In this document: positions 11,882-27,939 of the stretch, piece after piece
Position numbering within the stretch: the stretch's first letter is position 1
Layout of the letters: every line of letters starts with the position of its first letter
Assembly: GCA_943789275.1 (NCBI GenBank)
Contig: CALSTM010000002.1
Location: 90,001-122,000, forward strand
Direction of reading: 5' to 3'
Source: Candidatus Poseidoniaceae archaeon
GTDB lineage: Archaea; Thermoplasmatota; Poseidoniia; Poseidoniales; Poseidoniaceae
DNA length: 32,000 nucleotides
Translations under genes and position numbers: made by a program
The notes under the pieces: model-generated
What the model was told of the DNA's origin: nothing
Database searches by the model: none
The model's input: only the letters and a program-made list of their open reading frames with translations

Positions 11882-13243
11882 ATGCAGGGGGAGCCAGGTA
11901 CTGAGCATAAGGCCGACTCCTCTGAAGATATTTTGAAGGAACTCGCATCGAACGAGACATCGCTCCTCGCCCTCATCAAAACGCTCCTCTCGCCGAAGAC
12001 ATTACCTCATTTACTGATGATTGTGGTTCTTTCCACTGCCCTTTACTTTGTCGCGAATTCCAACAACGGAGAAGATATTGCTGCACTCGGATTCATCTCT
12101 CTTTCTTTAGGATACGTCATAACGGCAATTTTCTCGACCAATGAAAAGGTTCGTTCTTGGATTACCATTGCCCACGAACCGGATGTATCTCAATTCAATC
12201 TTGTTCAAAAAATTAAATCAAGCATCAAAATCTGCGCCTTCCCTATTTCAGTATCTGCAGGTATTGGCATACTCATCTTGGTTCTGTTCAGCCAAGACTC
12301 AGCGACTGACCTTCCAGCCGTATTCCCAATCAGTCTCGCCTCCTTATTTGTGATCTGGGCTGTCGCTCAAGGAAGGTCGTTTAGTTCATGGGCATCTTCG
12401 CTTTCAGCGAAAAAACTACCTGAGAAACAGGCCACAACTGGAAACTTAGCCGTCATGAATGCGATTCAATTTGCCATCATCATGGCTTTGTCGCTGGCAG
12501 GAATCATCGGTTTTGAGTTCCTCTACGAGAAAGAATGGGACTTGAGCAATGCAGTTGTTTCCAATATCTTGTTTTTGGTAATCGCATCTACAGCCTACGG
12601 ATTAACTGCGTTTTGGACAAGAGACGCCCGGCGTACAGCCATGCACGATAAGGCATTGAAAAAATTCTCTCGACGATGGACTCTTTTAGCACACATCTTC
12701 GCAACGTGGCACCTCTTGACCGTATGGCGTCAACTGGTGATGTCGCAACAAACCATCGAGATTTTTGTCGAAGAAGTTCTGTTAATGATGTTCACTGTAT
12801 TCATGGCGATTTGGACACTTACCTCGCAATCCATCGGCCCAAAATTCAAACTCCTTTCGACTGAAAACGCCCTGCCTTGGGGTCTGGCCTTCGGATATGC
12901 TTACGCAGGAAGCGTTGCTATGCTTGCGACTGCTCTGGACGACATCACCTACGTTATGGTCACCGGGCACATCATCGCGTTCCTCACCATCACATGGATG
13001 CAAAGGAGTGTTCTGCTCAAGGTGCTGTCCAAGCACGATATCGACGTCACTGTACAGCGACGCATCGAAGCGCATGCATCGAAAGTCGAGGCCTCAAAAC
13101 AGACCAATGAAGAATCTCAAACCGTTGAAACCGAAAACGATGATGCTTGGCAAGAGGACAAAGACGTACAGTGGAGCGGTGAAGTTGGCAATACCATTGG
13201 CGAAGATGTCGAATGGAACGAAGTCATCGAAATGGACGACTAG
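11882..13243 (+). CDS. Hypothetical polytopic membrane protein (~10 TM) with an acidic C-terminal tail
   Basis: 453-aa ORF with many hydrophobic helices. GGGAGGAG Shine-Dalgarno motif 5 nt upstream of the ATG. C-terminal ~60 aa rich in E/D/W. Confidence 0.7.
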   Translation: MQGEPGTEHKADSSEDILKELASNETSLLALIKTLLSPKTLPHLLMIVVLSTALYFVANSNNGEDIAALGFISLSLGYVITAIFSTNEKVRSWITIAHEPDVSQFNLVQKIKSSIKICAFPISVSAGIGILILVLFSQDSATDLPAVFPISLASLFVIWAVAQGRSFSSWASSLSAKKLPEKQATTGNLAVMNAIQFAIIMALSLAGIIGFEFLYEKEWDLSNAVVSNILFLVIASTAYGLTAFWTRDARRTAMHDKALKKFSRRWTLLAHIFATWHLLTVWRQLVMSQQTIEIFVEEVLLMMFTVFMAIWTLTSQSIGPKFKLLSTENALPWGLAFGYAYAGSVAMLATALDDITYVMVTGHIIAFLTITWMQRSVLLKVLSKHDIDVTVQRRIEAHASKVEASKQTNEESQTVETENDDAWQEDKDVQWSGEVGNTIGEDVEWNEVIEMDD

Positions 13244-14157
13244 GACTCGCCACGGATACCTGAAAGAAGCGTAACCACTCGAATGGTGTCCTCTAAATCT
13301 TCGCTGACTCGAGCACCGAGGATAACTTGAGCGTTCGGATCCAACGCTTCTGTGAACATGTTGGCAACTTCATCAACTTGCCCTATCGTCATACCAATAC
13401 CTCCTTCGACTTGTATCAAACATCCTTGAGCACCACCAACATCCAATTCAGCAAGGGGTGCCATGAGAGCAGAGTGCAGAATGCCCTCTGGGTCGTCAGG
13501 TCGTCCTGTGCCGACCAAAAGCGTCGCTTCTCCTTCCTTTTCCACAATAGCTCTCAAATCCATGAGGTCAAGATTGATGAGCCCCATTCGCATCAAGGTT
13601 CGTACCAAACCTTCGACTAAATCTTCGACCCATTCAGCACCCATTTGCCATGCTTTGCCCCGCTCTCGCGCCTGACGAGCCAGCCGTTCTAAGGAGAGTC
13701 GGACCGTCACATGAGCAATGTTTTCCAGTCGATGAAGGCCTTCTTGGGCGATTTGTGCACGGGTCTCTTGAACATCAAAAGGAAGGGCTGCAACGGCGAC
13801 AACAATCGCTCCAGATTGCCGTGCTTGGCGAGCAAACTCATGTGCCGCTCCTGTACCGGTTCCGCCGCCAAGTCCAGTCAGTAAAAGGACCAATTCAACC
13901 GGCTCAAGTACGGTCCGAGCAAGAGATGAATATCCCCGCATCCTTTGCTCAGCAAGCGGTGGAAGTGCCGCACAACCAACCGAGTCAAGGGCGTGACCAA
14001 GGCGCAAGAGGTGTGCAGAACCGCTGTCGGTGAAACTTGCGTCATCAGCGTCGACTAAGCAAAGATCGGCGTTGCCTTCACAACGTAAATGAGCGCCTTT
14101 CGCCCACGAACAGCCCAAGCCGCCCACACCAGCGATGAGGATTTGGGAGGCTTCCAT
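13240..14157 (-). CDS. Divergent FtsZ/tubulin-superfamily GTPase, 305 aa, lacking a C-terminal linker and tail
   Basis: Tubulin signature GLGGGTGTGAA. ALPFDVQE corresponds to FtsZ PFxFEG. T7-loop-like GLINLDLMDLRAIV conserves the N, D, D positions. The C-terminal domain pattern (GAQGCLIQVEGG...VILGARV...IRVVTLLSGI) is colinear with FtsZ. The G1 box is atypical (GVGGLGCSWA). Confidence 0.75.
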   Translation of the reverse strand: MEASQILIAGVGGLGCSWAKGAHLRCEGNADLCLVDADDASFTDSGSAHLLRLGHALDSVGCAALPPLAEQRMRGYSSLARTVLEPVELVLLLTGLGGGTGTGAAHEFARQARQSGAIVVAVAALPFDVQETRAQIAQEGLHRLENIAHVTVRLSLERLARQARERGKAWQMGAEWVEDLVEGLVRTLMRMGLINLDLMDLRAIVEKEGEATLLVGTGRPDDPEGILHSALMAPLAELDVGGAQGCLIQVEGGIGMTIGQVDEVANMFTEALDPNAQVILGARVSEDLEDTIRVVTLLSGIRGES

Positions 14158-14207: not shown

Positions 14208-14501
14208 TCAAACATATCGAAGATAACGTCGTCGAGCGTCTCTTGCCCATGCGTTGTCTGGCTCAAGAGAAAGGACTCGGTCGTAGTATTCAATGGCGGT
14301 CTCAAACTCGGACAGATGACGCCCATAGAGGTGACCGAGATTGGACAGAACCGGTATGCACTCTCCGTCCGCTTCGAGCATAGAAAGCAAAAGCCGTTCT
14401 GCTGCACCAAGGTCATTGCGGAGCATCATTTCTTCAGCTTGGTCGAGCTGTTCAAGTTGCTCAGTACTGAGTTCGTATGTGTTGTCGAAATGTGCAGCCA
14501 T
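14208..14501 (-). CDS. Small TPR-repeat protein
   Basis: 97-aa ORF. LSNLGHLYGRHLSEFETAIEYYDRVLSLEPDNAWA is a typical TPR unit. Lies 50 nt upstream of the FtsZ-like gene on the same strand. Confidence 0.65.
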   Translation of the reverse strand: MAAHFDNTYELSTEQLEQLDQAEEMMLRNDLGAAERLLLSMLEADGECIPVLSNLGHLYGRHLSEFETAIEYYDRVLSLEPDNAWARDARRRYLRYV

Positions 14502-14636: not shown

Positions 14637-14676
14637 CTTACTGCGTTGATGTTGTCGATGCGTTTTACTGGGAATG

Positions 14677-14682
14677 TTTAAG
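14677..14682 (+). promoter_or_regulatory. TATA-box-like TTTAAG ~30 nt upstream of the ATG at 14709 (would give a leaderless or near-leaderless mRNA)
   Basis: AT-rich hexamer preceded by purine-rich GGGAAT. Spacing fits archaeal TATA-to-TSS distance. No experimental support. Confidence 0.25.
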
Positions 14683-14708: not shown

Positions 14709-15548
14709 ATGGGTGAGGCTATGCTAAGGAACTCATTTTCCACACGTTCGGGAGTAGTGCTTGCGCTAGCGGTTTTACTCCTCGTCCCTGGCTTTGCAAC
14801 TTCGCTCCACAGCGGCGTTGGAGGCTCCCAGGACAACGCTGGAGAAACCATCGATGACGTTGCCAAAGAAGGCTGTCTTTGCCACAATGAAGCGGCAGAT
14901 AACTCCGTCCAAATCATCCTTGACGACGTACCTTACGGCTGGATTGGTGGCGAAACATACACCATGACGCTCCAAATCATCGGCGGACCACCGGCAACGG
15001 GCGTCTACACAGCAGGATTTGCCATTCGTACGACCGACGGCGTCCTTGGCGGTGAAGGCGTCCAGAACTGGGACGAAGACGTAACAGCGCTCACGCACAC
15101 CGAGGCATCTGCTGACAATGCAGACCGAATGTGGGTCATCACTTGGCAAGCGCCAGAATCTGGCTCCGATACAGTCAACTTTTGGATCACTGGCAATGCT
15201 GTTAACGGCGACCAACTGAACAATGCCGGTGGACAGGAAGACAAGTGGAACCAACTCCTGTTCGCCCTCCAAGAAGGCAGCGATTCAACAACCGCACTTG
15301 GCACTCGAACTCTTTTCGCTGGCGATGGAAATGTCAGCCCTCCAGAACCAGCCCACCACGGTGTGGACCTCGAGCACATGGGTGCTGAACTTCGCGCTCA
15401 CTGGCTCGGTCTGCTCGGGTTCGGCGCAGTCATCTTGGTGATTATTTTCGCTGGATTGATGCTGCGATACAGCTTCTCTACATCCTACACCGGACGAACC
15501 AATCAACTCCGATTGCGATACAAACTCATGCGAAGAGGTGACCAATGA
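14709..15548 (+). CDS. Secreted, C-terminally membrane-anchored protein of unknown family; first gene of the Rieske/cyt b operon
   Basis: 279-aa ORF. Signal-peptide-like N-terminus (VVLALAVLLLVPGFATS), a Thr/Gly/Asn-rich middle region, a C-terminal TM (WLGLLGFGAVILVIIFAGLML) and a basic tail. ATGA overlap with the next gene. Confidence 0.7.
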   Translation: MGEAMLRNSFSTRSGVVLALAVLLLVPGFATSLHSGVGGSQDNAGETIDDVAKEGCLCHNEAADNSVQIILDDVPYGWIGGETYTMTLQIIGGPPATGVYTAGFAIRTTDGVLGGEGVQNWDEDVTALTHTEASADNADRMWVITWQAPESGSDTVNFWITGNAVNGDQLNNAGGQEDKWNQLLFALQEGSDSTTALGTRTLFAGDGNVSPPEPAHHGVDLEHMGAELRAHWLGLLGFGAVILVIIFAGLMLRYSFSTSYTGRTNQLRLRYKLMRRGDQ

Positions 15549-15991
15549 TGGACGATACAATCACGACCCTACTTCGAAAGGTTGCCAGTGGCAAAGTCAG
15601 TGTCGAAGATGCACGAACTGCATTGGAAGATGCTTCGTTGACCGAAGACCAAATGCAGTCAGCGATTGACCATGGAGTATTCAACCTCGCCGAGTCAGGA
15701 ACTATTGTCAGTGCATCCCTCGCTCCTTCCGGAGCATCCAATCTGATCATGATGTTCTTCGTATGGGGAATCTTTTGGTCGTGCTACTGGGTCTTTTCCA
15801 TGATTTACGGCCTGGCCAAGGGATGGGACCAACAACAGTTGTCGTACCATGTAGCCATGATGCTCATCACGCTTTGCTTGTTGGGCATGGCTTACCTCAA
15901 ATTCGTCTTGCCAGACACAATCATCGTCAAGCACGGAATGAACAAGTTCGTTCCTGAACACCAGAAAGACTGGAAGGAATACAAGTGGTGA
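15545..15991 (+). CDS. Small 2-TM membrane protein with a soluble helical N-terminal domain
   Basis: 148-aa ORF. GAGGTGA Shine-Dalgarno motif just upstream. Two hydrophobic helices. The N-terminal LLRKVASGKVSVEDARTAL loosely resembles SHOCT-type short helical motifs. Confidence 0.6.
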   Translation: MMDDTITTLLRKVASGKVSVEDARTALEDASLTEDQMQSAIDHGVFNLAESGTIVSASLAPSGASNLIMMFFVWGIFWSCYWVFSMIYGLAKGWDQQQLSYHVAMMLITLCLLGMAYLKFVLPDTIIVKHGMNKFVPEHQKDWKEYKW

Positions 15992-15997
15992 TCTCAA

Positions 15998-16843
15998 ATG
16001 GCACGTGAATACGATCTCAAACCAGCACCTTCCGCTGCCGAAACCGGTTCAGTAACGACCTCTTCGTCGATCAATCGACGGCAATTTCTTCGCTACGGAT
16101 TCAATACAGCAACTGGAGTCTTAGCCGCATCACTCGGCGTCCTCGGGTTCGCATCCATCCTCCTGCCTCCAGGCGGTACCAACGAAGGCGAACTTGGCGT
16201 GAAGTTTTGGGCTAAAGGCCGTGAAGATGAAGCGTGGTACGGTGCAAAACACGAACAGTTGATGTTTCGACAAGACTTCGTTGATGAAGCTGCGAAGTCC
16301 AGTACAGGAACATCCGGAGCTGCAGGAATATGGAACGGCGTGCCAGTTGTTGTCACCTACGTCACCCACAGCGAATACGCTACGACTCCACTCTCAAACG
16401 GTAAGGCACGCTTCCAATTTACTGAAGGTGTTGACGAGACGGGCAAAACCATCGGTCACTTCGAAGACTTGAGCGATGCAGACCCCCGACTCCTTCCTTC
16501 CGACAACTTGGTCATGATTTTCGGCCGATGCACTCACCTTTGCTGCATTCCCGGATGGCAACTTGTATCGAACTCGTTCACAGAAGATTCATGGACGCCG
16601 GGTGGAGGAGACGACGGTGGTACCAAACTGTTCTGTATTTGCCACTCCTCGAGATTCGACCCCACTGTATTGGAAATGAACACCAACCGAAACCGTTCAA
16701 ACGGCTCGACATTCAATTATGCAGGAATCCGTAAAGCAGGAGGGCCTGCTCCTGTCGGACTACCCATAATCCCCATTCAATTGAATGGCGATGCAATCGA
16801 GGGCATCGTAGACTATCTCGACTGGTACACATACTGTGACTGA
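15998..16843 (+). CDS. Rieske [2Fe-2S] iron-sulfur protein with a twin-arginine signal
   Basis: Tat motif SINRRQFLRYG followed by a TM helix. Cluster boxes CTHLCC and CICHSS. GGTGATC Shine-Dalgarno motif 4 nt upstream. Confidence 0.9.
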   Translation: MAREYDLKPAPSAAETGSVTTSSSINRRQFLRYGFNTATGVLAASLGVLGFASILLPPGGTNEGELGVKFWAKGREDEAWYGAKHEQLMFRQDFVDEAAKSSTGTSGAAGIWNGVPVVVTYVTHSEYATTPLSNGKARFQFTEGVDETGKTIGHFEDLSDADPRLLPSDNLVMIFGRCTHLCCIPGWQLVSNSFTEDSWTPGGGDDGGTKLFCICHSSRFDPTVLEMNTNRNRSNGSTFNYAGIRKAGGPAPVGLPIIPIQLNGDAIEGIVDYLDWYTYCD

Positions 16844-16854
16844 GGTGAACAAAA

Positions 16855-17721
16855 ATGACGACAATGTTTTGGGTTCTCTGGTTTTTCATCGCCTTTGTTG
16901 TGGTGCTTGTTGCGTTGACGCTTCGTCAAGAAAGCAGCGATACTCCACGCCGTGAGATTCTACGTGCAGTGGAATCAACAGGAAAGATGGGTTTTGCTGA
17001 ACGTCTGTTCCTTTGGGTCTTTTCTTGGCTCGATACTCGTTTCAGACTTCAAGATTACTGGAACATGTCAAAGGGTGCATACTACAACATGCACCGACAG
17101 ATGCCGCTTTCCCACGCTGAGAAATACAAGCTTCGAATAATTTGGTACTGGTACCCGCTTTACTGCTTGGGAGGAATATCGTTCCTCTCGTTCATTATCT
17201 TAGTCGTCACTGGAACCGTTCTCGGAATATACTACGTCCCCGGTGGAGAAGGCGACCCGTCTCCTGCCTATGCGAGCATGCAATTCATCATGACTGAACT
17301 TCCGTTCGGCTACATCATCCGTGCAGTTCACCACTGGTGTACCCACTTCATGGTCGCCAGCGTGTTCCTGCATATGTGCCGTGTCTACTTCACCGGTGCA
17401 TACCGAAACCCTCGTGAACTCAACTGGCTTATCGGCGTTGCACTCATGGCATTGACCATTGTTTTTGGATACTCAGGCTACCTCCTTCCTTGGGACACAC
17501 TTGCATACGGTGCGGCAGTTATTGGAATCAACTTGGCAAACTCGAGCCCATTGGTTGGGAAATACATCGCAACCTTGCTTTTCAGTGGCTCTTCCTTGAC
17601 CTCTCGAACCGTGACTCGGATGTACTTCATACACGTGTTCATTCTACCGGTCATCGTGACAACACTGATCATCATTCACTTATTCATTGTCTGGGTACAA
17701 GGCATTGCAGAACCACATTGA
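16855..17721 (+). CDS. Cytochrome b, N-terminal (b6-like) di-heme subunit with an extra N-terminal TM helix
   Basis: Helix B His pair (VHHW...FLHM, 13 intervening residues). Helix D His pair (FIH...IIIH, 14 intervening residues, the b6-type spacing). YRNPRELNWLIGV block. GAGGTGA Shine-Dalgarno motif upstream. Confidence 0.9.
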   Translation: MTTMFWVLWFFIAFVVVLVALTLRQESSDTPRREILRAVESTGKMGFAERLFLWVFSWLDTRFRLQDYWNMSKGAYYNMHRQMPLSHAEKYKLRIIWYWYPLYCLGGISFLSFIILVVTGTVLGIYYVPGGEGDPSPAYASMQFIMTELPFGYIIRAVHHWCTHFMVASVFLHMCRVYFTGAYRNPRELNWLIGVALMALTIVFGYSGYLLPWDTLAYGAAVIGINLANSSPLVGKYIATLLFSGSSLTSRTVTRMYFIHVFILPVIVTTLIIIHLFIVWVQGIAEPH

Positions 17722-17738
17722 TACTCGGAGGATAAACC

Positions 17739-20567
17739 ATGGGACTAATCGAAAATTTCGGACGTGTTGCTTCTTCATACATGGAGGAGAAAGAGCAATT
17801 GCAAGAGGTCGCTGGAAAGCGTACTCGTACTCGAACGGGCCACGGTTTTTGGCCGCATGAAGTGTTGCGTGACACCATTCTCTTGTCGTTTATGGCAGCG
17901 GTGTTGCTGTTTTACGCTTGGTTAATTCCCCCACCGCTCCACGGTGCTGCGGACCCTTATGCACAAGCCGGTTTCGTGTTCCCTGATTGGTATGTTCTGT
18001 TCTCCTACGGTTACCTAAGATGGGGTGAATACCTGCCACAATTCACCGTCCCAACTGGATTCATTGGTGAAATAGTTGGCCAACCTGTATTCCCATGGAA
18101 CGCTGCATGGTGGGGCGCTGCCCTAACCGGTATTCCAGTCAGCATTCTCGCACTACCGCCTTTCCTCGGCGGCCGCGAAAAGCGTCCAGTTGAAGACCCA
18201 TGGTTTGCAACTGCTGGTGCCGTCTACCTGGCTCACATTTGGTTTATCTCTGTTTTCTCAATCAACATCTTCTTGGAACTGTACGAAAAGAACCGTTCAG
18301 ATTACTGTAAACTGGACAGCCATGGCGACCTCTTGTGTGGTGTAAGAGAACCATGGGTAGCTGAGGCATTCAACACAATACCATGGGTTATGACTGGCGT
18401 GTTAGCATGGATTTGTTTCTACTTCCTTGCCCGTGGAATGATGGTGAAAGCGTGGGGTGCTGGATTCAAGCCGAGCCATGCAAAGCAAATTCTTATTGGG
18501 ACTCTACTGGTCTCAACAGCCGGGACTGTCGCCACATGGGACACCTATGACGACGGTTTTTGGGACCAAGGTGGTTTGTTAACCATCAAAGGTCTAACAC
18601 ACGACTACTACCCTGAACTCGAAGCAATGCGTACACAACCAACAGATGTTCACGTACACGCTACCAACGAGTTCACAGACGAACGGGGATGGAGTGAAAC
18701 TGAAACGGTACCAACGACCGCTTGGCTGGATTGGATGATTTACCAACCTGCCCGTTACATCATTATTGATTTCAACGATGCGAACGGCCATCAAGACGCT
18801 GCAAACGGCATCAACGCTGCTGCAGGCAGTACCACCTTCAACGGTGGAGAGGGATGGACCGATTCCGGTACATTCACAGTGACTGAAGACACCTCACTGT
18901 TCCCGGATGGCCACCATGAATCCATCGAGACACTGACGACTGACCTCAGTTGTGAGTACCGTTCATCAGAGCGAAAGATCAACGATGTTTCCACCGTGAC
19001 CATGATTGCAACGACATTGACCGTTACAAACAGTCAGAACAAGGTCGTTTCAAGCTTTGACAACTGTGCAGGGGCAACTGTCGAACTACCTGTTGGCACC
19101 TATTCATACGAATACACCGTCGCAGTAAGCGGTGCTCTGGCTTTGAACAACAGCATCCAAACGGAAACAGCCTTCAACATTGCAACCTTCCAACCGCTCC
19201 TTGTCTGGGGCGAGAATGCTCCTGGAGCACTTGCTGGAACGACAGTGAATCTTTCCAGTTCGACGGACATGGCAGCAGGTGGAACCAACTTTGCGGCCAT
19301 TGAAAACCCAACCTACCACACCAATCCTAAGGCACTCGATGCCAAACTTACCTATGCAATGTTCATTCCATGTTTGACCTTTGGTGCCATAGTCTTCGTC
19401 GTCTTGCGCTCGATGGGTCGTGGATACGAGTTTGAGATGAACAAGTGTTACGGCTGTGACCTTTGTGACGATGCGTGCCCAGTACGTTTGTTCAACGGTG
19501 GAGACAAACTCAACATCATCTACAACTCATGGAACAATGAAGACGACGGTGTTCCGCTCTATTCATGTTTGACATGTACCGCATGTACCAACGCCTGCCC
19601 ACAACTGGTGAATTACGATTCATACGTGGACATCCGCCGCTCACTCATTGTCGGCGGACCTCAAGCAGAAATTGCACACACCGTCCTCCAAGCAGTTCTC
19701 GCTGCTGAAGCAGAAGAAGCGGCAGACGAAGATTTCGTGGCAACAGAAGATTACCCATTGACCTCAAACATCGGTTACTATCCTGGCTGTGTGGACTACC
19801 TCGACCAAGAGATGGTGTTCTCGCATGTCAACGAGGGAGAAATGAACCTTGGAGACGCTACGACATCTGCATTCACGCTCTTTGATGAGATGGAAATGGA
19901 TGTATCCTACCTTGGTCGTGACTTCCTCAAGTGCTGTGGTCACGATCAAAAATGGCAAGGTCTTGATGAGGTCTTTGAAAAACTCAAGGCGTACAATCAA
20001 AAGAAGATTGAGCAATCGGGAATCGATACTTTGGTTTCATCATGTGCTGAATGTTTCCGTACCTTCGCTCGAGATTACGAACTTGAAGGCGTCAAGGTCA
20101 TGCACACGACCGAGTTCCTCATCGAAAATGGATTTGATATGAACCTCAAAGCCGAAGAAGAAACAACCGTCACCTACCACGACCCGTGCCGTCTTGGACG
20201 ACAAATGGGAATCTATGAAGAGCCTCGTGAACTCATCGCTGGCGTTGAAGGTGTGGAAATCGTCGAGATGGAACACCACGGTGAAGACGCAATGTGCTGT
20301 GGCGTATCAAGCATGATGTCGTGCAATGAAAATGCCCGTTCACTTCGTGTCACTCGTATGGAAGAAATCCGAGCTACTGGAGCAGATACCATGCTCACCT
20401 CTTGCCCAAAGTGTGTATCTCACTTTGAATGCCTCAAATTCGAAGGTGATGAGCGCTACGAAGACATCGAAATTCTCGATGTTGTATCGTTCCTTGCACG
20501 GCAAGTCGAAGCAAAGAAAGCAAAGGCTGCTACAGAAGTGACCTCAGTCACCGAAGTCGAAGCTTGA
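17739..20567 (+). CDS. Fusion protein: cytochrome b C-terminal/subunit-IV-like domain + ~270-aa extracytoplasmic domain + TM + 2x[4Fe-4S] ferredoxin + two CCG domains (HdrD/GlpC-like)
   Basis: 942-aa ORF. PDWYVLFSY (the PEWY Qo-site motif region) within 5 predicted TM helices. A sixth TM lies at residues ~537-557. Ferredoxin motifs CYGCDLCDDACP and CLTCTACTNACP. Then two Cys-rich units with CCG (PGC...CCGHD...SSCAEC and DPCRLG...CCGVS...CPKC). GGAGGAT Shine-Dalgarno motif upstream. Confidence 0.88.
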   Translation: MGLIENFGRVASSYMEEKEQLQEVAGKRTRTRTGHGFWPHEVLRDTILLSFMAAVLLFYAWLIPPPLHGAADPYAQAGFVFPDWYVLFSYGYLRWGEYLPQFTVPTGFIGEIVGQPVFPWNAAWWGAALTGIPVSILALPPFLGGREKRPVEDPWFATAGAVYLAHIWFISVFSINIFLELYEKNRSDYCKLDSHGDLLCGVREPWVAEAFNTIPWVMTGVLAWICFYFLARGMMVKAWGAGFKPSHAKQILIGTLLVSTAGTVATWDTYDDGFWDQGGLLTIKGLTHDYYPELEAMRTQPTDVHVHATNEFTDERGWSETETVPTTAWLDWMIYQPARYIIIDFNDANGHQDAANGINAAAGSTTFNGGEGWTDSGTFTVTEDTSLFPDGHHESIETLTTDLSCEYRSSERKINDVSTVTMIATTLTVTNSQNKVVSSFDNCAGATVELPVGTYSYEYTVAVSGALALNNSIQTETAFNIATFQPLLVWGENAPGALAGTTVNLSSSTDMAAGGTNFAAIENPTYHTNPKALDAKLTYAMFIPCLTFGAIVFVVLRSMGRGYEFEMNKCYGCDLCDDACPVRLFNGGDKLNIIYNSWNNEDDGVPLYSCLTCTACTNACPQLVNYDSYVDIRRSLIVGGPQAEIAHTVLQAVLAAEAEEAADEDFVATEDYPLTSNIGYYPGCVDYLDQEMVFSHVNEGEMNLGDATTSAFTLFDEMEMDVSYLGRDFLKCCGHDQKWQGLDEVFEKLKAYNQKKIEQSGIDTLVSSCAECFRTFARDYELEGVKVMHTTEFLIENGFDMNLKAEEETTVTYHDPCRLGRQMGIYEEPRELIAGVEGVEIVEMEHHGEDAMCCGVSSMMSCNENARSLRVTRMEEIRATGADTMLTSCPKCVSHFECLKFEGDERYEDIEILDVVSFLARQVEAKKAKAATEVTSVTEVEA

Positions 20568-20617: not shown

Positions 20618-21385
20618 ATGGACTACACAGGAATGACCGTCGTTCAACTGAAAACGCTCTGTAGAGAACGTGGACTCCGGGTTTCCGGAAACAAAGATGA
20701 AGTCATCATCCGATTGATGGAGAACGACGAATCACTGGCCCCAGTTCAAACCTATGCTGCACCTGCACCGCAACCTATGCCAATGTATCAAACGCAACCG
20801 ATGGGCGGCTATGTTCAGCCTCAGCCCCGATACATCCAAGTGCAAAGCCAAAAAGAGGAGATGTCAAAGACCATTGGTGGGTTTGTCATCCTCTACGCCT
20901 TCTTCAGGTTGTTTTGGGCCATGGTATTCTCGATTGGTATCGGAGGCAGCGATGAATCTTGGCTCCTTTCAATTCCAGCATTCCTTATTGGAATTGGTTT
21001 CCTCGTTGGTGGAGCAATACTTTACTCAGGATACCGAAACGGAGTTTACTTGACCTTGGGTGTATTGGTTGTATCTGGAATGTTGAGTGTAATGTTCCAC
21101 GGCGACAATCCGAACCCGGTGTCTGTAGCGTGGGGCGATCAGATGATTTTGACATCCATTTTTTGTTCATTTATTTGCATGGCACTCGTTGCTCTTCCAA
21201 TATTCATGTCACAGCTTAAACCAGGATGGCCGGCCAATATTGAGCGCCTCTTGGGACAAGATTCCACCACGAGTTCCGGAAAAGACAAGGTTCAATGCGC
21301 ACATTGCAGTGCAGCACTCCAAGTCCCAGCGGGGTACTCTGGCAAGATTCAATGCCCGTCGTGCCAGAAAGAAATGCGTGTTTAA
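20618..21385 (+). CDS. Membrane protein with an N-terminal SAP domain and a C-terminal MJ0042-type zinc ribbon
   Basis: SAP consensus MTVVQLKTLCRERGLRVSGNKDEVIIRLME. A P/Q-rich linker, ~4 hydrophobic helices, and a C-terminal CAHC...VPAGYSGKIQCPSC. Confidence 0.75.
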   Translation: MDYTGMTVVQLKTLCRERGLRVSGNKDEVIIRLMENDESLAPVQTYAAPAPQPMPMYQTQPMGGYVQPQPRYIQVQSQKEEMSKTIGGFVILYAFFRLFWAMVFSIGIGGSDESWLLSIPAFLIGIGFLVGGAILYSGYRNGVYLTLGVLVVSGMLSVMFHGDNPNPVSVAWGDQMILTSIFCSFICMALVALPIFMSQLKPGWPANIERLLGQDSTTSSGKDKVQCAHCSAALQVPAGYSGKIQCPSCQKEMRV

Positions 21386-21676
21386 TCAATCGCCTGAAGG
21401 TGGTGACTGACCTTCGTCCATCCCCGTGATTTCATAGTTCGAAGGAAACAAGGCAATGAGAACACCAAGGATGAGAGAAGCAAGACCCCAACCGAACATC
21501 TGGCGTACAAAGAGCATTTCAAGCGCGATGACGACAAGAAGCATTCCACCGATGTTGGAAGTCCAAACTAATGTCTTGAAGGTCGACAGGGAGACTCCAG
21601 GCGTTCCTTCCTTTCGATAAGGACCGAACTCTCCACCAAAACGTTGCGCTGTATCTTGTTTATCATTTTTGGACAT
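21386..21676 (-). CDS. Small 2-TM membrane protein (hypothetical)
   Basis: 96-aa ORF. The GAGGTG Shine-Dalgarno motif overlaps the ferredoxin stop codon, 5 nt before the ATG. Two hydrophobic helices. Confidence 0.6.
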   Translation of the reverse strand: MSKNDKQDTAQRFGGEFGPYRKEGTPGVSLSTFKTLVWTSNIGGMLLVVIALEMLFVRQMFGWGLASLILGVLIALFPSNYEITGMDEGQSPPSGD

Positions 21677-21685
21677 TCAAACACC

Positions 21686-22018
21686 TCATCTGTCTATCAT
21701 TGTGATTGCATCGGTTGGGCAAGCCAAAACACATAATCGGCACCCAGTGCAATCATCACGCAAAATTTTCGCTTTTTGATTTGACTCGACTTTAATCAGT
21801 GGGCTTGCCATTGCCACTTTATACATCTCAATGGCATCATCGTCACAAACGATGGTACATTGATCGCATCCTATGCAAAGGCGCTCTTCGACAAATGCAA
21901 CAGTGGTTTCCCCACCCTTTATCGAAGCACGTTGCTCGCCTCGAAGACGATTAAGAGAAGTTCGAATACGAACCGCCTCTTGCTCACGGCGCTTGCGCAA
22001 CTCGTCGGAGGAGGTCAT
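21686..22018 (-). CDS. 2x[4Fe-4S] ferredoxin with a basic N-terminal extension
   Basis: CIGCDQCTIVCD and CTGCRLCVLACP motifs. ATGA overlap with the upstream gene, and GGAGGT 6 nt upstream of the ATG. Confidence 0.88.
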   Translation of the reverse strand: MTSSDELRKRREQEAVRIRTSLNRLRGEQRASIKGGETTVAFVEERLCIGCDQCTIVCDDDAIEMYKVAMASPLIKVESNQKAKILRDDCTGCRLCVLACPTDAITMIDR

Positions 22019-22689
22019 ACATGAACCTCCAATCGGTCCTTCCCTTCAAACTTGACGACGGCTAAATTCACCAAGAGGTCACCTAAACAATAGAAGGAAC
22101 CCACCAAAAGTGGTGGATTCCACGCAGTAAGACCGGTCCATGGGACCTCACTTGCCCAGGTCCAATTACCGAGCGAAGTTCCAACAATCTCCATGGCTAA
22201 AGCAGCCCAAACCATTGCCGCATACAACCGAGGCTGCGGGCCGAGTCGAATGAACACGAGAACAAGTACGAGAAGAAGGACTGCAGAAGTATCGCCACCG
22301 GTCCATGCCCCATAGAAGACAATCGGAACCAAAGGAAGAAGCAACGGAAGAGCCCAATTCTCTTTCATTTTATCAGCACATATTCTTCCAAGGTCGAACA
22401 AAAAGTAATGTCCTGCAGGAACGAAGAGCGGCATTAGATCCCTTTGGTATTCGTAAATAAGCCATACTTCGCTGAAGAAAAGTTCCATCGGCGTAGCAAA
22501 AGCAACCACCGTCAGCATTTCGATTCTCTGTTTACGGTTTCCTGAACGGTAGTACCAAGCAAACAATCCCCAGCACCAAATATTCACGGGCCATTCAGCG
22601 TACTGGTCAGGCAAAAGACCGTTGCAGGACGTCGCCGAAAACCAAAGCCCGAGGGCAATGGTTCCGATGTACATCCATGCCCTGTTCAT
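22015..22689 (-). CDS. Polytopic membrane protein, unknown function (~7 TM, Trp-rich)
   Basis: 224-aa hydrophobic ORF inside a coupled operon. PMELFF and AMEIVG segments faintly recall lycopene-cyclase/carotenoid-type membrane domains, but the match is too weak to call. Confidence 0.6.
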   Translation of the reverse strand: MNRAWMYIGTIALGLWFSATSCNGLLPDQYAEWPVNIWCWGLFAWYYRSGNRKQRIEMLTVVAFATPMELFFSEVWLIYEYQRDLMPLFVPAGHYFLFDLGRICADKMKENWALPLLLPLVPIVFYGAWTGGDTSAVLLLVLVLVFIRLGPQPRLYAAMVWAALAMEIVGTSLGNWTWASEVPWTGLTAWNPPLLVGSFYCLGDLLVNLAVVKFEGKDRLEVHV

Positions 22690-22725: not shown

Positions 22726-23946
22726 TTACTCCGCGCCGCCGTACGAGAGCAATTCTTTGCCCATAGCCAACATGGAGAGTTCTGCAACAAGGGCATGCCA
22801 ACCATGGGCATGCTCGCCGTAGCGACGACCGGATTGAGTAAACGATTCAAAAGTCGCGCTTGGAGAATTCAAATTTTCGATGTCTGACCGCTTAGCATTA
22901 ATTCTATAGAACCAAGAACTTGCCTGGCCATCTACCAAATAAACCACGGGTTCGACGGGCGCACCATCATCGGTTTTCAATGAGGTAGGGATTCCTTCTT
23001 GAATCAAAAAATTATCAACGTTAACTCCACCTTTGGAATACATGAGCTTCTTCATCTTACGGTTGGAAAGTTCAAGCAACTCAGTTCCGCTGTGAACCGC
23101 CATGATACCAAGACCGTATGTCCCTCGGTCGTTCTTGATGAAGGCGACCGGTTCTCGTTTGATTCCAAGAGATTGGTACTTCGTTCGAATTGAATCAAGG
23201 AAGGCATCGACTTCAATGGCCAAATCTTTTCTGCACGCTTCTTTTTCGAGGCATTTGTCGTTTGAAACAAACCAATCCGTCATCAGGTACCACGGGTCGA
23301 TTCCTAGAAGTTCCGAAATTTCTTCAACATAGCCTTTGAGAACTTCATAGTGTTGAGATTTGCGCCGGCGATGCCACCCCATTGAAGGGGGTGGAGATAC
23401 GACTTGGTTACCAAACCCTTCAATCAAGCCCTCTGTCAGGTCGTTATTCAGTAGAACCAAATCTGGTTTCAAGCCATTAATCAGCAATACATCTTCTCCA
23501 TCAACTGTTTCTGATGCAACTGGGTCCAATTTGAGTGGTCCAGAAAGACCAACGAGGTGCCCCAAGTTTTCGAAATCCAATGAACCAACAGTGCATTTGA
23601 AACCGCCAAGCAGGAGCAGTTCCTTGAGTGCGGCAATGTTTTCGATGTACCCCTTATTTCTCGTGTGCGATTCTGGATACAGATGCACCCACTTACAGTG
23701 GTTGTACTCTCTGTTAATGTGGTTCTGTAAAAGTTGGGCCAATCTCGGTTTATCTTCTTCTGAGACGTTGTTGAACCCTGCTGGGAAATGGTTGGCATCG
23801 ACCACTCCAATCTTCCATCCAGCGTCTCGAATGTCGACGCTACCGTAAATCGGAATGGGGATATCCATACGCTTTACTTCCATCCAAGCCGTGACTTCTT
23901 CACGCTTACTTTCGAGAAGTTCGGTTAAATTATGTACAAATGTCAC
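22726..23946 (-). CDS. gshA: Glutamate--cysteine ligase, GshA (Pfam GshA / T. ferrooxidans-type) family
   Basis: Family-typical blocks: YGSVDIRDAGWKIGVVDANHFPAGFNN, PESHTRN, LLNNDL, PPPSMGWHRRRKSQHY, IDPW, DRGTYGLGIM, IQEGI, EPVVYLVD, WFYRI. The GTG start overlaps the asnB stop (GTGA) and follows a perfect GAGGTGATC Shine-Dalgarno motif. Confidence 0.72.
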   Translation of the reverse strand: MTFVHNLTELLESKREEVTAWMEVKRMDIPIPIYGSVDIRDAGWKIGVVDANHFPAGFNNVSEEDKPRLAQLLQNHINREYNHCKWVHLYPESHTRNKGYIENIAALKELLLLGGFKCTVGSLDFENLGHLVGLSGPLKLDPVASETVDGEDVLLINGLKPDLVLLNNDLTEGLIEGFGNQVVSPPPSMGWHRRRKSQHYEVLKGYVEEISELLGIDPWYLMTDWFVSNDKCLEKEACRKDLAIEVDAFLDSIRTKYQSLGIKREPVAFIKNDRGTYGLGIMAVHSGTELLELSNRKMKKLMYSKGGVNVDNFLIQEGIPTSLKTDDGAPVEPVVYLVDGQASSWFYRINAKRSDIENLNSPSATFESFTQSGRRYGEHAHGWHALVAELSMLAMGKELLSYGGAE

Positions 23947-25727
23947 CCGATCACCTCGTTGAGCAAATCATAGGTAGAGCCCATGGGTTTTCGACGCCCA
24001 TCACCAAGAATATGCATTGCTTCAAACAATCCTAAACCAAGTGCTATTTCATGTTGAGTGTTCAACGCCCCTGCTAAAAGAGGATACCGTGCAATGATGG
24101 CTTCGGATTGTGGCTTGAAATCATTCAGTAAAGAATCAATCAAACTTGGAGAAGTCGCTCTTCCTGCAGGTAATTTCGGACGATGAACAATGTTCCGAGG
24201 GAGGGAGGTCAAGCTTGCTGCTGAACGGAGTGCGGCTTTTTCATCACCGTTTACTGGAAGGCGCCAATCCATCGGTAATCGATGACTGGCTTTGCGATGT
24301 GAAGACGAAAGGAAAGGCACACGCACTTCAAGAGAATGAGCCATTGAATGCCGGTCCACTAAGCGAAGTTGGAAATTCGAGAGTTGGCCGTGGTCAAGTT
24401 CGAATTGAAGGAAATCATCAAGCGAACCGGTATGGCTTGAGCCGGTATGGTCTGAAGTGTACCAGTGCTCTCCGGTTGGAAGGACTTTGTTTTCGATTTG
24501 GCGAGCGAGAGGATGTGACATTGAAGCCAAACGTGCATCGATTAAATCGCTGTGTTGCTTCAAATCACGGTAGCGTGGATAACCTGCATGCAACTCATCT
24601 GCACCTTGTCCGCACAGACCAACTTTCACATGCTTCGACATGTTCTGAAACAGAGGTTGGAAGAACAAGACGGTCACATCGAGGTCTTCTCCATGCCAAG
24701 CCAAATCTGGTAACTTCGTTTCAAAAGAGTCGGGTTCCAAAATATGCTGGTGGTGTTCTAAATCAAAGGATGAAGCAACCTCTTCTGCCGCAATCCAATC
24801 AGGATTGTCTTCACTTTCAGCAACCGTCCAACACGCTGGAACCGGTTGTTGTGCACGTTCCGCTGCTTCATGTGCTACGGCGGCAACAAGAGATGAATCA
24901 AGACCGCCGGAGAGAACAATTCCAACCGGAACATCCGCCATCAAGCGTTCAGAAACACCCTCAACAAAACTTTCCAGGAGCGATGCGGCATTGGCATCAG
25001 GATTCCATGATGCTGAAGGTTCGACGAATTGTCGCTCAATCACTGCTGAATCGTGAAGATAAGGCCGACCTTCATGATCGAGGCACCAGACTTCGACTGT
25101 GCCGGGTCGAACTTGAACCACATCCTTGAACAACGTCGTTCCGTCCAGTGGATATTCCCAAGCAATCCGGGCAATTAAGGCAAGTTCATCGATGGCAGGA
25201 ACATAAGATTCATGCGCACGTAATGCCTTGGTTTCACTCGCAAATAGCAAGGAGCCATCCACATGGGTACGAACAAGAGGTTTGATTCCCATAGGGTCTC
25301 GGGCAAGGATGAGTTGCTTTGCTCCTTCATCCCAAAGAGCGATGGCATACATACCGTTCAATCGATTCAGCCATTTTGCATGTTGCCCAGCACTGAGTAC
25401 CCCGTTGGACTTGCTTTTAGCAGAATGAAGCAGCGAGAGAATGGACTCAGAATCGCCTTGAGTGGTCCAACGGTATTGAGAATGCTGTGTTCGTAAGGAT
25501 TGATGATTGTAGATTTCACCGTTCACGACAAGAACTTCACCTGCAGGACCAAACAGAGGTTGAGCACTTCCAATCAGGTCGACAATGGCAAGACGTGTGT
25601 GTCCCATAGCGATTGATTCATCGCTCCATACATCGCTGCCATCCGGCCCTCGATGAGAAAGAAGTGAATTCATTCGGTGAATCACCGAAGTATCCGGTTG
25701 ACCGAACATCCCTCCAATGCCACACAT
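23943..25727 (-). CDS. asnB: Asparagine synthetase B-family glutamine-hydrolysing amidotransferase
   Basis: N-terminal MCGIGG (Ntn nucleophile Cys directly after Met, so the start is set at 25727, not 25757). GEIYNH. PP-loop SGGLDSS. LCGQGADELHAGY. GAGGT Shine-Dalgarno motif 7 nt upstream of 25727. Confidence 0.85.
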   Translation of the reverse strand: MCGIGGMFGQPDTSVIHRMNSLLSHRGPDGSDVWSDESIAMGHTRLAIVDLIGSAQPLFGPAGEVLVVNGEIYNHQSLRTQHSQYRWTTQGDSESILSLLHSAKSKSNGVLSAGQHAKWLNRLNGMYAIALWDEGAKQLILARDPMGIKPLVRTHVDGSLLFASETKALRAHESYVPAIDELALIARIAWEYPLDGTTLFKDVVQVRPGTVEVWCLDHEGRPYLHDSAVIERQFVEPSASWNPDANAASLLESFVEGVSERLMADVPVGIVLSGGLDSSLVAAVAHEAAERAQQPVPACWTVAESEDNPDWIAAEEVASSFDLEHHQHILEPDSFETKLPDLAWHGEDLDVTVLFFQPLFQNMSKHVKVGLCGQGADELHAGYPRYRDLKQHSDLIDARLASMSHPLARQIENKVLPTGEHWYTSDHTGSSHTGSLDDFLQFELDHGQLSNFQLRLVDRHSMAHSLEVRVPFLSSSHRKASHRLPMDWRLPVNGDEKAALRSAASLTSLPRNIVHRPKLPAGRATSPSLIDSLLNDFKPQSEAIIARYPLLAGALNTQHEIALGLGLFEAMHILGDGRRKPMGSTYDLLNEVIG

Positions 25728-25768
25728 GAGATAAACCTCAGAGGCTACCTTCTTCAATCATTGCCAAA

Positions 25769-27483: not shown

Positions 27484-27492
27484 GTGAGCACC

Positions 27493-27939
27493 TCATGCCG
27501 ATGAGGTCCAGTACCAGTCGCTTCCTTCTCCAACACCAGCGTCCTTCACTTCGACTGCTTCGTCAATAAATTGTAGAATCTCAGCTGTTGGTGTACCTGG
27601 GCCAAAAATTGCTCGGATTCCACAGGCAAATAGGGCGTCTCTGTCGTCAACGGGTATAATTCCGCCACCGAAGACAATAACGTCATTCAAACCTTCTTGC
27701 TTGAGCAAATCACACACCTTTGGGAAAAGATGCTGATGAGCGCCGGAGAGTGAGGATAAGCCGAGAAATCGCGCATCTTCGTCTCGAACAGTGTCCACAA
27801 TTTGTTGAGCACTGCGTCGTAGACCGGTGTAAATGACTTCGTTCCCAGCGTCTCTCAACGCTCTTGCCACAACTTTAGCCCCTCGGTCGTGACCGTCTAA
27901 ACCGGGCTTGGCTACTACGATTCGCCATGGTTCGCTCAT
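27493..27939 (-). CDS. Methylmalonyl-CoA mutase small subunit (cobalamin-binding domain)
   Basis: IVVAKPGLDGHDRGAKVVARALRDAG contains the DxHxxG B12-binding motif. SSLSGAH and GGGIIP blocks are present. Confidence 0.9.
   Translation of the reverse strand: MSEPWRIVVAKPGLDGHDRGAKVVARALRDAGNEVIYTGLRRSAQQIVDTVRDEDARFLGLSSLSGAHQHLFPKVCDLLKQEGLNDVIVFGGGIIPVDDRDALFACGIRAIFGPGTPTAEILQFIDEAVEVKDAGVGEGSDWYWTSSA

Follow-up and report, generated by a model that had tools for sequence, protein, structure and literature searches.

Organization of the operon

We analysed a 32,000-nucleotide stretch of DNA (the window) from a Candidatus Poseidoniaceae archaeon (assembly GCA_943789275.1, contig CALSTM010000002.1), in which five consecutive plus-strand open reading frames (ORFs) appear to encode a Rieske/cytochrome b complex of unusual composition. 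They are gene 1 (14709-15548; 279 amino acids (aa) from the first ATG), a predicted extracellular anchored protein; gene 2 (15545-15991; 148 aa), a small membrane protein; gene 3 (15998-16843; 281 aa), a putative Rieske protein; gene 4 (16855-17721; 288 aa), a cytochrome b6-like protein; and gene 5 (17739-20567; 942 aa), which joins a subunit-IV-like part to an HdrD-like iron-sulfur (Fe-S) module. The initial annotation of this DNA had placed the five plus-strand ORFs at the same positions, and its product descriptions hold. Among them are a b6-type cytochrome b split between gene 4 and the subunit-IV-like start of gene 5, and a last gene that continues from this N-terminus into an HdrD part.

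The five genes are closely packed. The stop of gene 1 and the start of gene 2 overlap in ATGA, and the following junctions leave gaps of 6, 11 and 17 nucleotides (nt). Every internal start is preceded by a Shine-Dalgarno (SD) motif (GAGGTGA, GGTGATC, GAGGTGA and GGAGG, respectively), of which 5-7 nt are complementary to the archaeal anti-SD sequence and which lies 3-7 nt upstream; both the junctions and the SD motifs had been described correctly before. About 28-36 nt 5' of the first ATG of gene 1 we found the element AATGTTTAA (14673-14681, plus strand), which resembles a B recognition element and TATA box (BRE/TATA), and the pattern AAYGTTTAW occurs only here in the whole window. At the equivalent site 5' of gene 1, AACGTTTAT or AATGTTTAA is present in five related loci (L056, L057, L058, L059 and L061), and a sixth (L001) has the close variant AACGTTAAT. 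We infer that this element is the promoter and that the operon is transcribed from one promoter there. The gene 1 start of the relatives is preceded by a conserved SD sequence, AGGTGAG, which in the window overlaps the first ATG (14709). Because this motif covers the first ATG and many gene 1 homologues are 275 aa long, the true start is probably the second ATG at 14721, which gives a protein of 275 aa.

To see how far this arrangement extends, we compared nine loci from six divergent Poseidoniales lineages, namely L001-L003 (Thalassarchaeaceae), L056, L057, L058, L059/L060 and L061. In all of them (9 of 9) the five genes recur in unchanged order and just as tightly packed, even in the more distant L059/L060 and L061, whose gene 1 is just 48-50% identical. 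An identical order with equally tight junctions in so many divergent lineages is far beyond chance. Together with the junctions, the SD motifs and the conserved promoter element, it supports the conclusion that genes 1-5 are one tightly coupled operon. The names given to homologues of genes 1 and 5, Candidatus Poseidoniales, Poseidoniaceae and Thalassarchaeaceae, belong to the Marine Group II (MGII) archaea. The initial annotation had proposed comparing synteny in related genomes and had regarded a Rieske/cytochrome b core without the accessory genes as evidence against the unit. The gene order turned out to be kept across Poseidoniales, down to 48% identity for gene 1, and none of the loci examined carries the core without its accessory genes.

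The operon of the relatives is longer than that of the window. Downstream of gene 5, on the minus strand, the window encodes an RnfB-like 2x[4Fe-4S] ferredoxin of 110 aa (21686-22018; Pfam Fer4_21 2.6e-14; best NCBIfam match rnfB, 5e-12) and a small protein of 96 aa with two transmembrane (TM) helices (21386-21676), which pairs with the ferredoxin in relatives and has no family match in Pfam or NCBIfam. In L056 the ferredoxin begins 4 nt after gene 5 on the same strand and in L059/L060 27 nt after it, followed in each case by a two-helix protein of 92-100 aa. The pair is also located downstream on the operon strand in L001 and L057, and in L001 a 65% identical orthologue of the 96-aa protein follows the ferredoxin. 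In L061 an 82-aa ORF lies between gene 5 and the ferredoxin on the same strand; the contig ends just past the ferredoxin, so the pairing is not readable there. Altogether the pairing is seen in L001, L056, L057, L058 and L059. The window and L058 share an inserted SAP-domain gene after gene 5 and an inversion of the ferredoxin pair. Since the ferredoxin and the two-helix protein continue the operon on the same strand in relatives, the ancestral operon is a unit of seven genes. Thus the five genes described in the initial annotation are indeed coupled in the window, but the ferredoxin and the two-helix protein of the full unit had been missed. A survey of MGII genomes reported a Rieske protein and cytochrome b with no canonical bc1 complex, as well as an orphan RnfB (Tully et al., PMC6336850), and the ferredoxin of this cluster is most likely that orphan. 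The remark on Rieske and cytochrome b was not found in the reference apparently cited for it in that survey.

Rieske protein, cytochrome b6 and the small subunit

The product of gene 3 has a twin arginine at aa 27-28 (RRQFLR, aa 27-32) and one TM helix. Both Rieske boxes are complete, with C178-T-H180-L-C-C183 as box I and C213-I-C215-H216 as box II, the disulfide cysteines included, and the spacer between them is unusually long (29 aa). Over both boxes it aligns with the Rieske subunits 7yr9_A and 8smr_C, while the match to TIGR01416 (1.5e-10) is below the cut-off of that model and the Pfam match is below threshold. By these motifs, gene 3 is predicted to be a Rieske [2Fe-2S] protein exported by the twin-arginine translocation (Tat) system and anchored by its TM helix.

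Gene 4 is matched to Pfam Cytochrome_B (5e-42) and, in the PDB, to cytochrome b6 1vf5_A (6.3e-44), followed by actinobacterial QcrB (~1e-28). In NCBIfam it is matched to ExtP (2e-63), b6 (2.6e-58) and SoxC (1e-26; cut-off 740 bits). The protein has helices A-D with an extra TM helix at the N-terminus; all four heme-ligand histidines are conserved in the alignment to 1vf5_A, which runs to residue 214/215 of cytochrome b6, so that gene 4 ends where cytochrome b6 ends. The comparison thus classifies gene 4 as a b6-type cytochrome b, with far greater similarity to the b6 of bacteria and cyanobacteria than to SoxC of Sulfolobus. Besides, it contains Y103-C104-L-G-G (LYCLGG), the attachment motif of heme c_i, which five other orthologues share with the window protein and which suggests Cys104 as a heme c_i attachment site. 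This single-cysteine motif, YCLGG, has been reported only from Firmicutes, cyanobacteria, chloroplasts and one other clade (Kao and Hunte, PMC4122944).

Motif scans found CxxCH or CxxxCH in none of the five operon products, and CxxCH in none of the 26 likely genes of the window. With Pfam and NCBIfam, no cytochrome c family match was obtained for the operon products, nor any Copper-bind or cupredoxin match for any of the five. The initial annotation had called the complex one without any c-type cytochrome. This stands as far as CxxCH is concerned, but it leaves out the heme c_i motif of cytochrome b6 and a C-x-C-H motif in gene 1.

Gene 2 encodes an acidic N-terminal segment of ~60 aa followed by two TM helices, as judged by hydropathy. 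It is matched to DUF7318 with an E-value of 1e-3, and so are all five orthologues searched (5 of 5), one of them above the gathering score, which suggests that gene 2 is a distant member of this family.

A subunit-IV-like part fused to an HdrD-like module

We divided gene 5 into three parts by hydropathy and an AlphaFold2 (AF2) model, and measured its conservation in 114 sequences. The N-terminal part (aa 1-266; 17739-18536, plus strand) contains subunit-IV-like helices E-H and a fifth TM helix (aa 245-265) that returns the chain to the outside. The motif P82-D-W-Y85, which aligns with the PEWY motif of subunit IV in the quinol-oxidising (Qo) site, is invariant in the 114 sequences, and aa 59-216 are nearly invariant. 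Sequence comparison reaches only the beginning of this part: the profile of gene 5 orthologues aligned with PetD in hhalign at aa 31-94 against 25-89 (E 3.7e-4, probability 36%), phmmer aligned the same N-terminal region with 7r0w_J (E 0.45), and Pfam did not detect the N-terminus. Considering also the gene order, the end of gene 4 at the C-terminus of b6 and the near-invariance of aa 59-216, we assign the first ~100 aa to a subunit-IV-like protein with modest confidence.

The middle part (aa 267-536; 18537-19346, plus strand) is modelled as an alpha/beta region and a beta-sandwich, with an AF2 confidence score (pLDDT) of 80-94. It has few invariant columns and a probable disulfide, C405-C443, and the fold search gave just generic jelly-roll or GOLD-like matches. 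From the number of TM helices and the basic residues after helices H and 6 (positive-inside rule), we infer that this domain lies outside and the Fe-S module in the cytoplasm. In L059 the orthologue of gene 5 (L059:12000-16004) is 1334 aa long, with a middle region of ~660 aa in which ~400 residues of repeat-like beta structure have been added; its subunit-IV and HdrD ends are still conserved. The outside domain seems to be evolving freely.

The C-terminal part (19347-20567, plus strand) starts with the sixth TM helix (TM segment aa 537-555, within a helix spanning about aa 532-569) and continues into the HdrD-like module. Here a 4Fe-4S dicluster domain, with CxxCxxCxxxCP ferredoxin motifs at aa 570-581 and aa 610-621, is followed by two complete CCG motifs (C684, C732-C733, C769-x-x-C772 and C817, C853-C854, C889-x-x-C892), all of whose cysteines are invariant or nearly so. 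Pfam recognizes CCG in two stretches (1.2e-22) as well as Fer4_8/9/10. The best NCBIfam match is TfrB (2.5e-32), but the scores of the equivalog models are far under their cut-offs (112 bits versus 385 for TfrB and 38 versus 400 for DsrK), so the sequence of the module does not allow us to assign it to heterodisulfide reductase or any other characterised enzyme. The closest solved relative is EtfD (9ojn_A; 7.9e-23 by sequence, 1.5e-26 by profile and 4e-12 by fold), followed by HdrB (5odc_B) and LutA. The first CCG motif reads K-C-C-G and C-A-E-C, which is the HdrB type. We considered and rejected the possibility that gene 5 is EtfD itself: its CCG motifs are HdrB-like, its membrane part is subunit-IV-like, and the similarity is confined to the Fe-S module.

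The chV domain of gene 1

Gene 1 begins with a hydrophobic stretch resembling a Sec-type signal peptide (aa 15-33) and ends with a TM helix (aa 233-251) and a basic cytoplasmic tail. The extracellular domain between them (aa ~34-190) includes C56-L-C58-H59 (nt 14874-14885). No Pfam family matches gene 1, and it belongs to NCBIfam NF041895, “choice-of-anchor V” (chV), with 74.2 bits against a cut-off of 42 (1.1e-20; aa 23-172). The AF2 model is a beta-sandwich with a pLDDT of 75, above 85 in the core, and the best PDB match by Foldseek is the Reeler domain of F-spondin (3coo/2zot; E 1e-4, TM-score 0.53-0.58 on the target). The initial annotation had suggested comparison with CbsA, EB_dh and DOMON-like folds, and the model resembles Reeler, not a DOMON or EB_dh fold. 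No cupredoxin is among the 50 best matches listed, and by sequence the chV family profile finds nothing in the PDB, even at E 10. Weak Pfam Reeler matches, below threshold, do occur in two members of the chV family. On the model, gene 1 is best described as a membrane-anchored extracellular Reeler-like chV protein. Because gene 1 folds as a beta-sandwich, has its motif ~23 aa downstream of the mature N-terminus and is anchored at the C-terminus, we considered a relation to cytochrome f; it was dropped as a claim of homology, as the fold search returned no cytochrome f. We found nothing relevant on “choice-of-anchor V”, or on a prokaryotic Reeler domain with electron transfer, in the literature covered, which was incomplete.

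An exhaustive search for relatives returned 459 representatives at E<=1e-3, and we counted motifs in the best 149 of them. Apart from C56, C58 and H59, the invariant positions comprise one Gly close to the mature N-terminus and a small number of structural Gly, Trp, Pro and Asp. Of the 149 sequences, 117 have C-x-C-H, 2 have CxxCH and 5 have Cx4CH, while no motif was found in 25, mostly fragments. Two Chloroflexi homologues have a canonical CxxCH (CNLCH and CNNCH) at the CxCH position. These two sequences (L054:9926-10468 and L055:9710-10411) are also matched to the MXAN_6652 MXYO-CTERM model (1.9e-40; 138.6 bits, against an equivalog cut-off of 200), and a homologue from Ignavibacteria (L053) has CSCH and a T9SS-like tail. 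In gene 1 the TM helix and tail are conserved as strongly as the chV domain. For this reason gene 1 fits a fixed subunit of the complex, as far as its sequence tells.

chV domains in oxidase operons and other contexts

We scanned genomes for chV with a 5-sequence alignment and obtained 47 Poseidoniales-type and 3 bacterial loci, so contexts beyond Poseidoniales are thinly covered. In Poseidoniales, chV turned out to form an N-terminal extension of heme-copper oxidase subunit I (COX1), to which it is joined by a single TM helix. Two types of oxidase operon contain this fusion. One is ordered COX3-COX2-chV::COX1, with a free chV gene following in seven of nine loci; the other is ordered COX2-chV::COX1-COX3. 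All 30 fusion ORFs, from both operon types, keep CxCH. The fusions are named Thalassarchaeaceae, Poseidoniaceae and Poseidonia, and in the protein database every one of the 36 nearest COX1 relatives has the length of a fusion. As the loci were chosen by the presence of chV, these counts do not establish how frequent the fusion is among all Poseidoniales oxidases. In L030 COX1 is unfused and a chV gene follows it. COX2 of L004 has an intact CuA site. The initial annotation had overlooked this domain fused to oxidase subunit I across Poseidoniales, the strongest clue to the role of gene 1. The two oxidase types (L004:6468-11006 and L020:9104-13269) have COX1 parts that are just ~38% identical.

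A free chV gene is also located directly after a genuine Sco gene (CYNTCP and His) in seven loci. In these loci (L006, L007, L009, L010, L011, L016 and L024; e.g. L006:5492-10540) the cluster consists of a secreted TSP3-repeat protein of ~1200 aa, Sco1/SenC and the free chV protein (205-229 aa), and this three-gene arrangement occurs in Thalassarchaeaceae-type genomes. A larger Sco-domain protein is encoded downstream in the type-2 oxidase loci L031, L033 and L052. Other architectures include a fusion of chV to a plastocyanin-type copper domain (P0306, whose neighbours are not respiratory) and a fusion to the four-helix membrane domain DUF4079 (P0361), which is matched to prokaryotic cytochrome b561 with E 0.008, below the gathering score. 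Several chV paralogues occur per genome. One Poseidoniales paralogue of 331 aa (L062:7001-7996) lacks the second conserved His (TST versus THT), has extra C-terminal helices and sits between pntAB (transhydrogenase) and tatC. At the three bacterial loci the chV neighbours are uninformative (TonB receptor, phosphoenolpyruvate carboxykinase (PEPCK), glycosyltransferase).

These contexts can be set beside what is reported for the phylum. A survey of Thermoplasmatota found the cytochrome c Pfam families absent from all genomes (PMC9287336). In other Thermoplasmatota, blue copper proteins are encoded beside complex IV and upstream of the Rieske gene (PMC9287336, PMC9038741), and in Thalassarchaeaceae the halocyanin genes are highly transcribed (PMC9723583).

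A proposed electron path

Marine Group II archaea, which are uncultured, are among the most abundant archaea of the surface ocean. We propose that this region encodes respiratory complex III in the form it takes in Poseidoniales (Marine Group II), wired as described below, and we give this reading a probability of about 0.6. A low-potential quinol would be oxidised at the Qo site, and PDWY suggests menaquinol, since this motif correlates with menaquinol and low-potential Rieske proteins (PMC4122944). One electron would leave Qo for the Rieske cluster, from which the chV subunit (gene 1) would take it over, standing in for cytochrome c1/f or for the blue copper protein of related archaea. From the chV subunit it would go, directly or via halocyanin, to the chV domain of oxidase subunit I and on to CuA. 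The role of chV as electron-transfer partner is suggested by the COX1 fusions, the free chV genes beside COX1, the Sco neighbour, the fusions to a cupredoxin and to DUF4079, and the blue copper proteins at equivalent positions in relatives. We lean slightly towards this path from the Rieske protein over the chV subunit to the chV domain and CuA of the oxidase, at a little better than even odds.

The second electron would go to hemes bL and bH (and c_i) on the n-side of the membrane. There the HdrD-like module and the ferredoxin would constitute an Fe-S wire to the cytoplasm beside hemes bH and c_i, through which reduced ferredoxin or another cytoplasmic donor would deliver electrons to the quinone in the Qi site. 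Such a ferredoxin-to-heme-c_i route has been proposed for b6f, and it has long been debated for cyclic electron flow. Three considerations make us tentatively favour entry into the Qi site: EtfD and HdrDE offer an analogy, there is an orphan RnfB, and an aerobic heterotroph has to reoxidise its ferredoxin. We put the chances of this direction somewhat short of even.

For the cofactor of chV there are two candidates, a copper-thiolate centre and a covalently bound heme. The Sco neighbour and the Cys2His set speak for copper, as does the fact that the phylum lacks cytochrome c families, while a covalent heme is suggested by Cys, Cys and His as the only invariant candidate ligands and by the CxxCH and Cx4CH variants at the same position. 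That the chV domain represents a redox carrier of a new kind is a realistic possibility. The full claim goes further: chV would be a new class of extracytoplasmic carrier, with Cys2His copper or C-x-C-H heme, that replaces both cytochrome c1 and the oxidase entry partner, in a complex III with a built-in arm from ferredoxin to Qi (heme c_i). We regard this combination as doubtful.

Several points weigh against the proposed complex. To our knowledge, C-x-C-H is no heme c or copper redox motif, and we know of no cofactor in Reeler, the nearest solved fold; only Cys, Cys and His are invariant as candidate ligands in the family. By analogy with Cox11, the Sco neighbourhood and a beta-sandwich with C-x-C would also fit a copper chaperone. 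The subunit-IV assignment is statistically weak (hhalign probability 36% at E 3.7e-4, with Pfam blind to it), and in gene 5 AF2 models both the subunit-IV part and the ferredoxin part poorly, so distances between clusters and hemes are not derivable from that model. Gene 5 keeps the HdrB-type catalytic cysteines lost in EtfD and may perform thiol/disulfide chemistry rather than act as a pure relay. The ferredoxin pair is outside the operon in this window. Moreover, the halocyanin and plastocyanin genes of Poseidoniales could provide direct acceptors of Rieske electrons (PMC9723583).

Alternative explanations

In another reading, gene 1 and the related chV proteins would not carry electrons but would serve outside the cytoplasm in copper delivery or assembly, in the manner of Cox11, PCuAC or Sco, and the Rieske protein would reduce halocyanin or plastocyanin directly. 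Membrane-anchored Cox11 is built as a beta-sandwich and contains the copper motif C-F-C-F; the two invariant Cys and one His of chV are the copper ligand set of Sco, a stand-alone chV gene directly follows a genuine Sco gene in 7 loci, and chV is encoded within oxidase operons. The high transcription of halocyanin in Thalassarchaeaceae (PMC9723583) points the same way. A chaperone would be unexpected, however, as a translationally coupled subunit with a conserved anchor in a copper-free Rieske/cytochrome b operon, and one would not expect it to be permanently fused with its client in two types of oxidase when another, free copy is encoded next to the fusion, while the several paralogues per genome and the cupredoxin and DUF4079 fusions look like electron carriers. 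All in all, we find this explanation rather unlikely. It has also to be asked whether genes 1 and 2 belong to the complex at all, or are co-transcribed neighbours with an unrelated surface function such as adhesion, which would leave only Rieske, cytochrome b6 and gene 5 in the complex. Many chV members do have surface anchors (PGF-CTERM-like, T9SS, MXYO-CTERM) and Ig-like or CARDB repeats. But the position of genes 1 and 2 is invariant, with stop and start overlapping or abutting in all lineages, the anchor and tail of gene 1 are conserved, and the COX1 fusion is specific, and we consider a surface function extremely improbable. Nearly as improbable is a complex like CbsAB-SoxLN, with gene 1 as a CbsA-like mono-heme b protein and gene 2 as its CbsB-like partner. 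The initial annotation was reminded of that system by the layout (a secreted anchored protein, a small hydrophobic protein, Rieske and cytochrome b), and the lack of CxxCH agrees with it. Against it, gene 1 has no Pfam match, the chV profile has no PDB relative and the fold match is Reeler; the chV invariants are Cys-x-Cys-His, not a Met/His/Lys pair of heme b ligands; gene 2 falls in DUF7318; and the cytochrome b is split, b6-like and far from SoxC/SoxN. The likeness is therefore reduced to a functional analogy.

A further alternative concerns the direction of the Fe-S arm. Quinol oxidation at Qo, drawn by the high-potential branch, could push the second electron through bL and bH out into the arm, where it would reduce a cytoplasmic disulfide or ferredoxin in a quinone-based bifurcation, as has been proposed for the anammox Rieske/cytochrome b complexes with extra modules. 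Thiol:fumarate reductase TfrB is the top NCBIfam match of the module, and a gamma-glutamylcysteine ligase gene adjoins the cluster in the window and in L056-L059. Yet that neighbour is absent in L001 and the region is broadly syntenic, we know of no thiol substrate in these archaea, aerobic heterotrophs that make reduced ferredoxin need a sink for it more than a source, and the solved HdrD-like membrane proteins with hemes (EtfD) feed quinone. Gene 5 does retain all ten CCG cysteines of catalytic HdrB/HdrD, unlike EtfD (PMC13083937). On balance, an exit arm is in our view unlikely.

If the proposed complex III is correct, the locus and its relatives provide a testable wiring for MGII respiration, with the proteins between quinol and oxygen and a place for the orphan RnfB. 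The chV domain would be a candidate for a new electron-carrier domain, also found in Chloroflexi, Ignavibacteria, other archaea and probably myxobacteria (sub-threshold match to MXAN_6652). A copper cofactor would bear on the trace-metal economy of ocean archaea, and a heme on C-x-C-H would extend the rules of heme attachment. A Rieske/cytochrome b6 complex that combines a heme c_i motif with a fused cytoplasmic Fe-S wire would serve as a natural experiment in how electrons are injected into Qi from the n-side, and with a ferredoxin-to-Qi arm one enzyme would join ferredoxin:quinone reductase to the Q-cycle in a hard-wired form.

Comparison with known systems

By sequence, the core can be placed in the Rieske/cytochrome b superfamily (split b6 type) and the Fe-S module in the HdrD/CCG family, with partial precedents in Angelarchaeales, bacterial Fe-S fusions and anammox complexes. 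The core resembles b6f and the b6c menaquinol oxidoreductases of Firmicutes and heliobacteria in its split cytochrome b, four His, YCLGG, Tat-exported Rieske protein and best PDB matches to cytochrome b6, and the menaquinol-using b6c lineages also in the PDWY motif of Qo (PMC4122944). Unlike b6f and b6c, it has no cytochrome f or c subunit, includes chV and DUF7318 proteins as further putative subunits and occurs in an archaeal host; its subunit IV is extended by two TM helices, followed by the outside domain, one more TM helix and the HdrD-like module, and its cytochrome b6 has an extra N-terminal helix not found in b6f. With SoxLN-CbsAB it shares an archaeal Rieske/cytochrome b pair without cytochrome c, co-encoded with a secreted anchored and a small hydrophobic protein. 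It differs from that system by a split, b6-like cytochrome b (SoxC 1e-26 versus b6 2.6e-58) instead of the long SoxN/SoxC type, and by a Reeler-like gene 1, genes 1 and 2 having no Pfam homology apart from DUF7318, as judged without a direct comparison to the CbsA sequence.

The Fe-S module resembles HdrDE, EtfD (9ojn), DsrMK, GlpC and LutA, in which two [4Fe-4S] motifs and two CCG domains are placed in the cytoplasm on a quinone-handling heme-b membrane protein. Unlike in HdrDE and EtfD, the membrane partner here is a Rieske/cytochrome b6 complex with a Qo site, not a NarI/HdrE-type protein, and the module is attached by the subunit IV fusion. In EtfD electrons flow from a cytoplasmic donor over [4Fe-4S] clusters and heme b to menaquinone; its five-helix HdrE/NarI-like heme b domain and its altered first CCG motif (Thr539 replacing the second Cys, and His583), which gives a linear [3Fe-4S] cluster, have no counterpart in gene 5 (PMC13083937). 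The complex III loci of other Thermoplasmatota and of Nitrososphaerales likewise combine Rieske and cytochrome b without cytochrome c, and those of Angelarchaeales have hdrD-like and rnfB-like genes adjoining. In these lineages a plastocyanin-like blue copper gene precedes the Rieske gene where chV is found here, and the fusion of the HdrD-like part to subunit IV distinguishes our operon (PMC9038741). In the bacterial “PDWF-FeS” clade (PMC4122944) and in anammox complexes a cytochrome b with a Qo motif is also joined to cytoplasmic Fe-S modules. Those modules are 4Fe-4S with MvhD or ferredoxin with flavin reductase, whereas ours is HdrD-like, and the PDWF-FeS clade lacks the Rieske protein present here (PMC4122944).

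The gene 1 model is most similar to Reeler, as in F-spondin and the eukaryotic Reeler-DOMON-cytochrome b561 proteins (FRRS1/SDR2), with an identity to Reeler of 16-18%. The P0361 architecture of chV and DUF4079 tentatively resembles these Reeler-DOMON-cytochrome b561 proteins. We know of no C-x-C-H in the Reeler domains of animals, nor of any cofactor demonstrated in them. Cox11, PCuAC and Sco are similarly extracytoplasmic and membrane-tethered, have Cys/His ligands and are encoded near oxidase or Sco genes, and Cox11 and PCuAC are beta-sandwiches; but our sequence and fold searches returned no match of chV to any of them, and none is found in a Rieske/cytochrome b operon or fused to subunit I. 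We found no description of the subunit IV-HdrD fusion, the seven-gene operon or chV in complexes III and IV in the literature, of which our coverage was incomplete.

Neighbouring genes

The SAP-domain gene between gene 5 and the inverted ferredoxin pair (20618-21385, plus strand) encodes five hydrophobic helices and a C-terminal zinc ribbon. As the insertion and inversion are present in the window and L058 and absent from L056, L059 and L061, they point to a recent rearrangement in this lineage. A 224-aa membrane protein without family match (22015-22689, minus strand) overlaps the ferredoxin start by 4 nt, forming with the ferredoxin and the 96-aa gene a small minus-strand operon in the window; a 226-aa gene has the same place in L058. 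Beyond the pair, also on the minus strand, are GshA glutamate-cysteine ligase (22726-23946; Pfam 1.5e-99) and an asparagine-synthase-like gene (23943-25757). Both neighbours are found in L056, L057, L058 and L059, not in L001, and gshA may be a clue to a thiol substrate of the HdrD-like module or mere conserved synteny.

Upstream of the operon and divergent from it are an FtsZ/tubulin-family protein (13240-14157, minus strand; 305 aa) and a TPR protein (14208-14501, minus strand; 97 aa), a pair kept at that position in every Poseidoniales locus compared. Downstream lie genes of the propionyl-/methylmalonyl-CoA pathway (MeaB, a B12-binding domain protein and a carboxyltransferase; 26572-29653), which also flank the cluster in L001, L056 and L058. 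The window further encodes the archaeal RNA polymerase subunits B, A', A'' and H.

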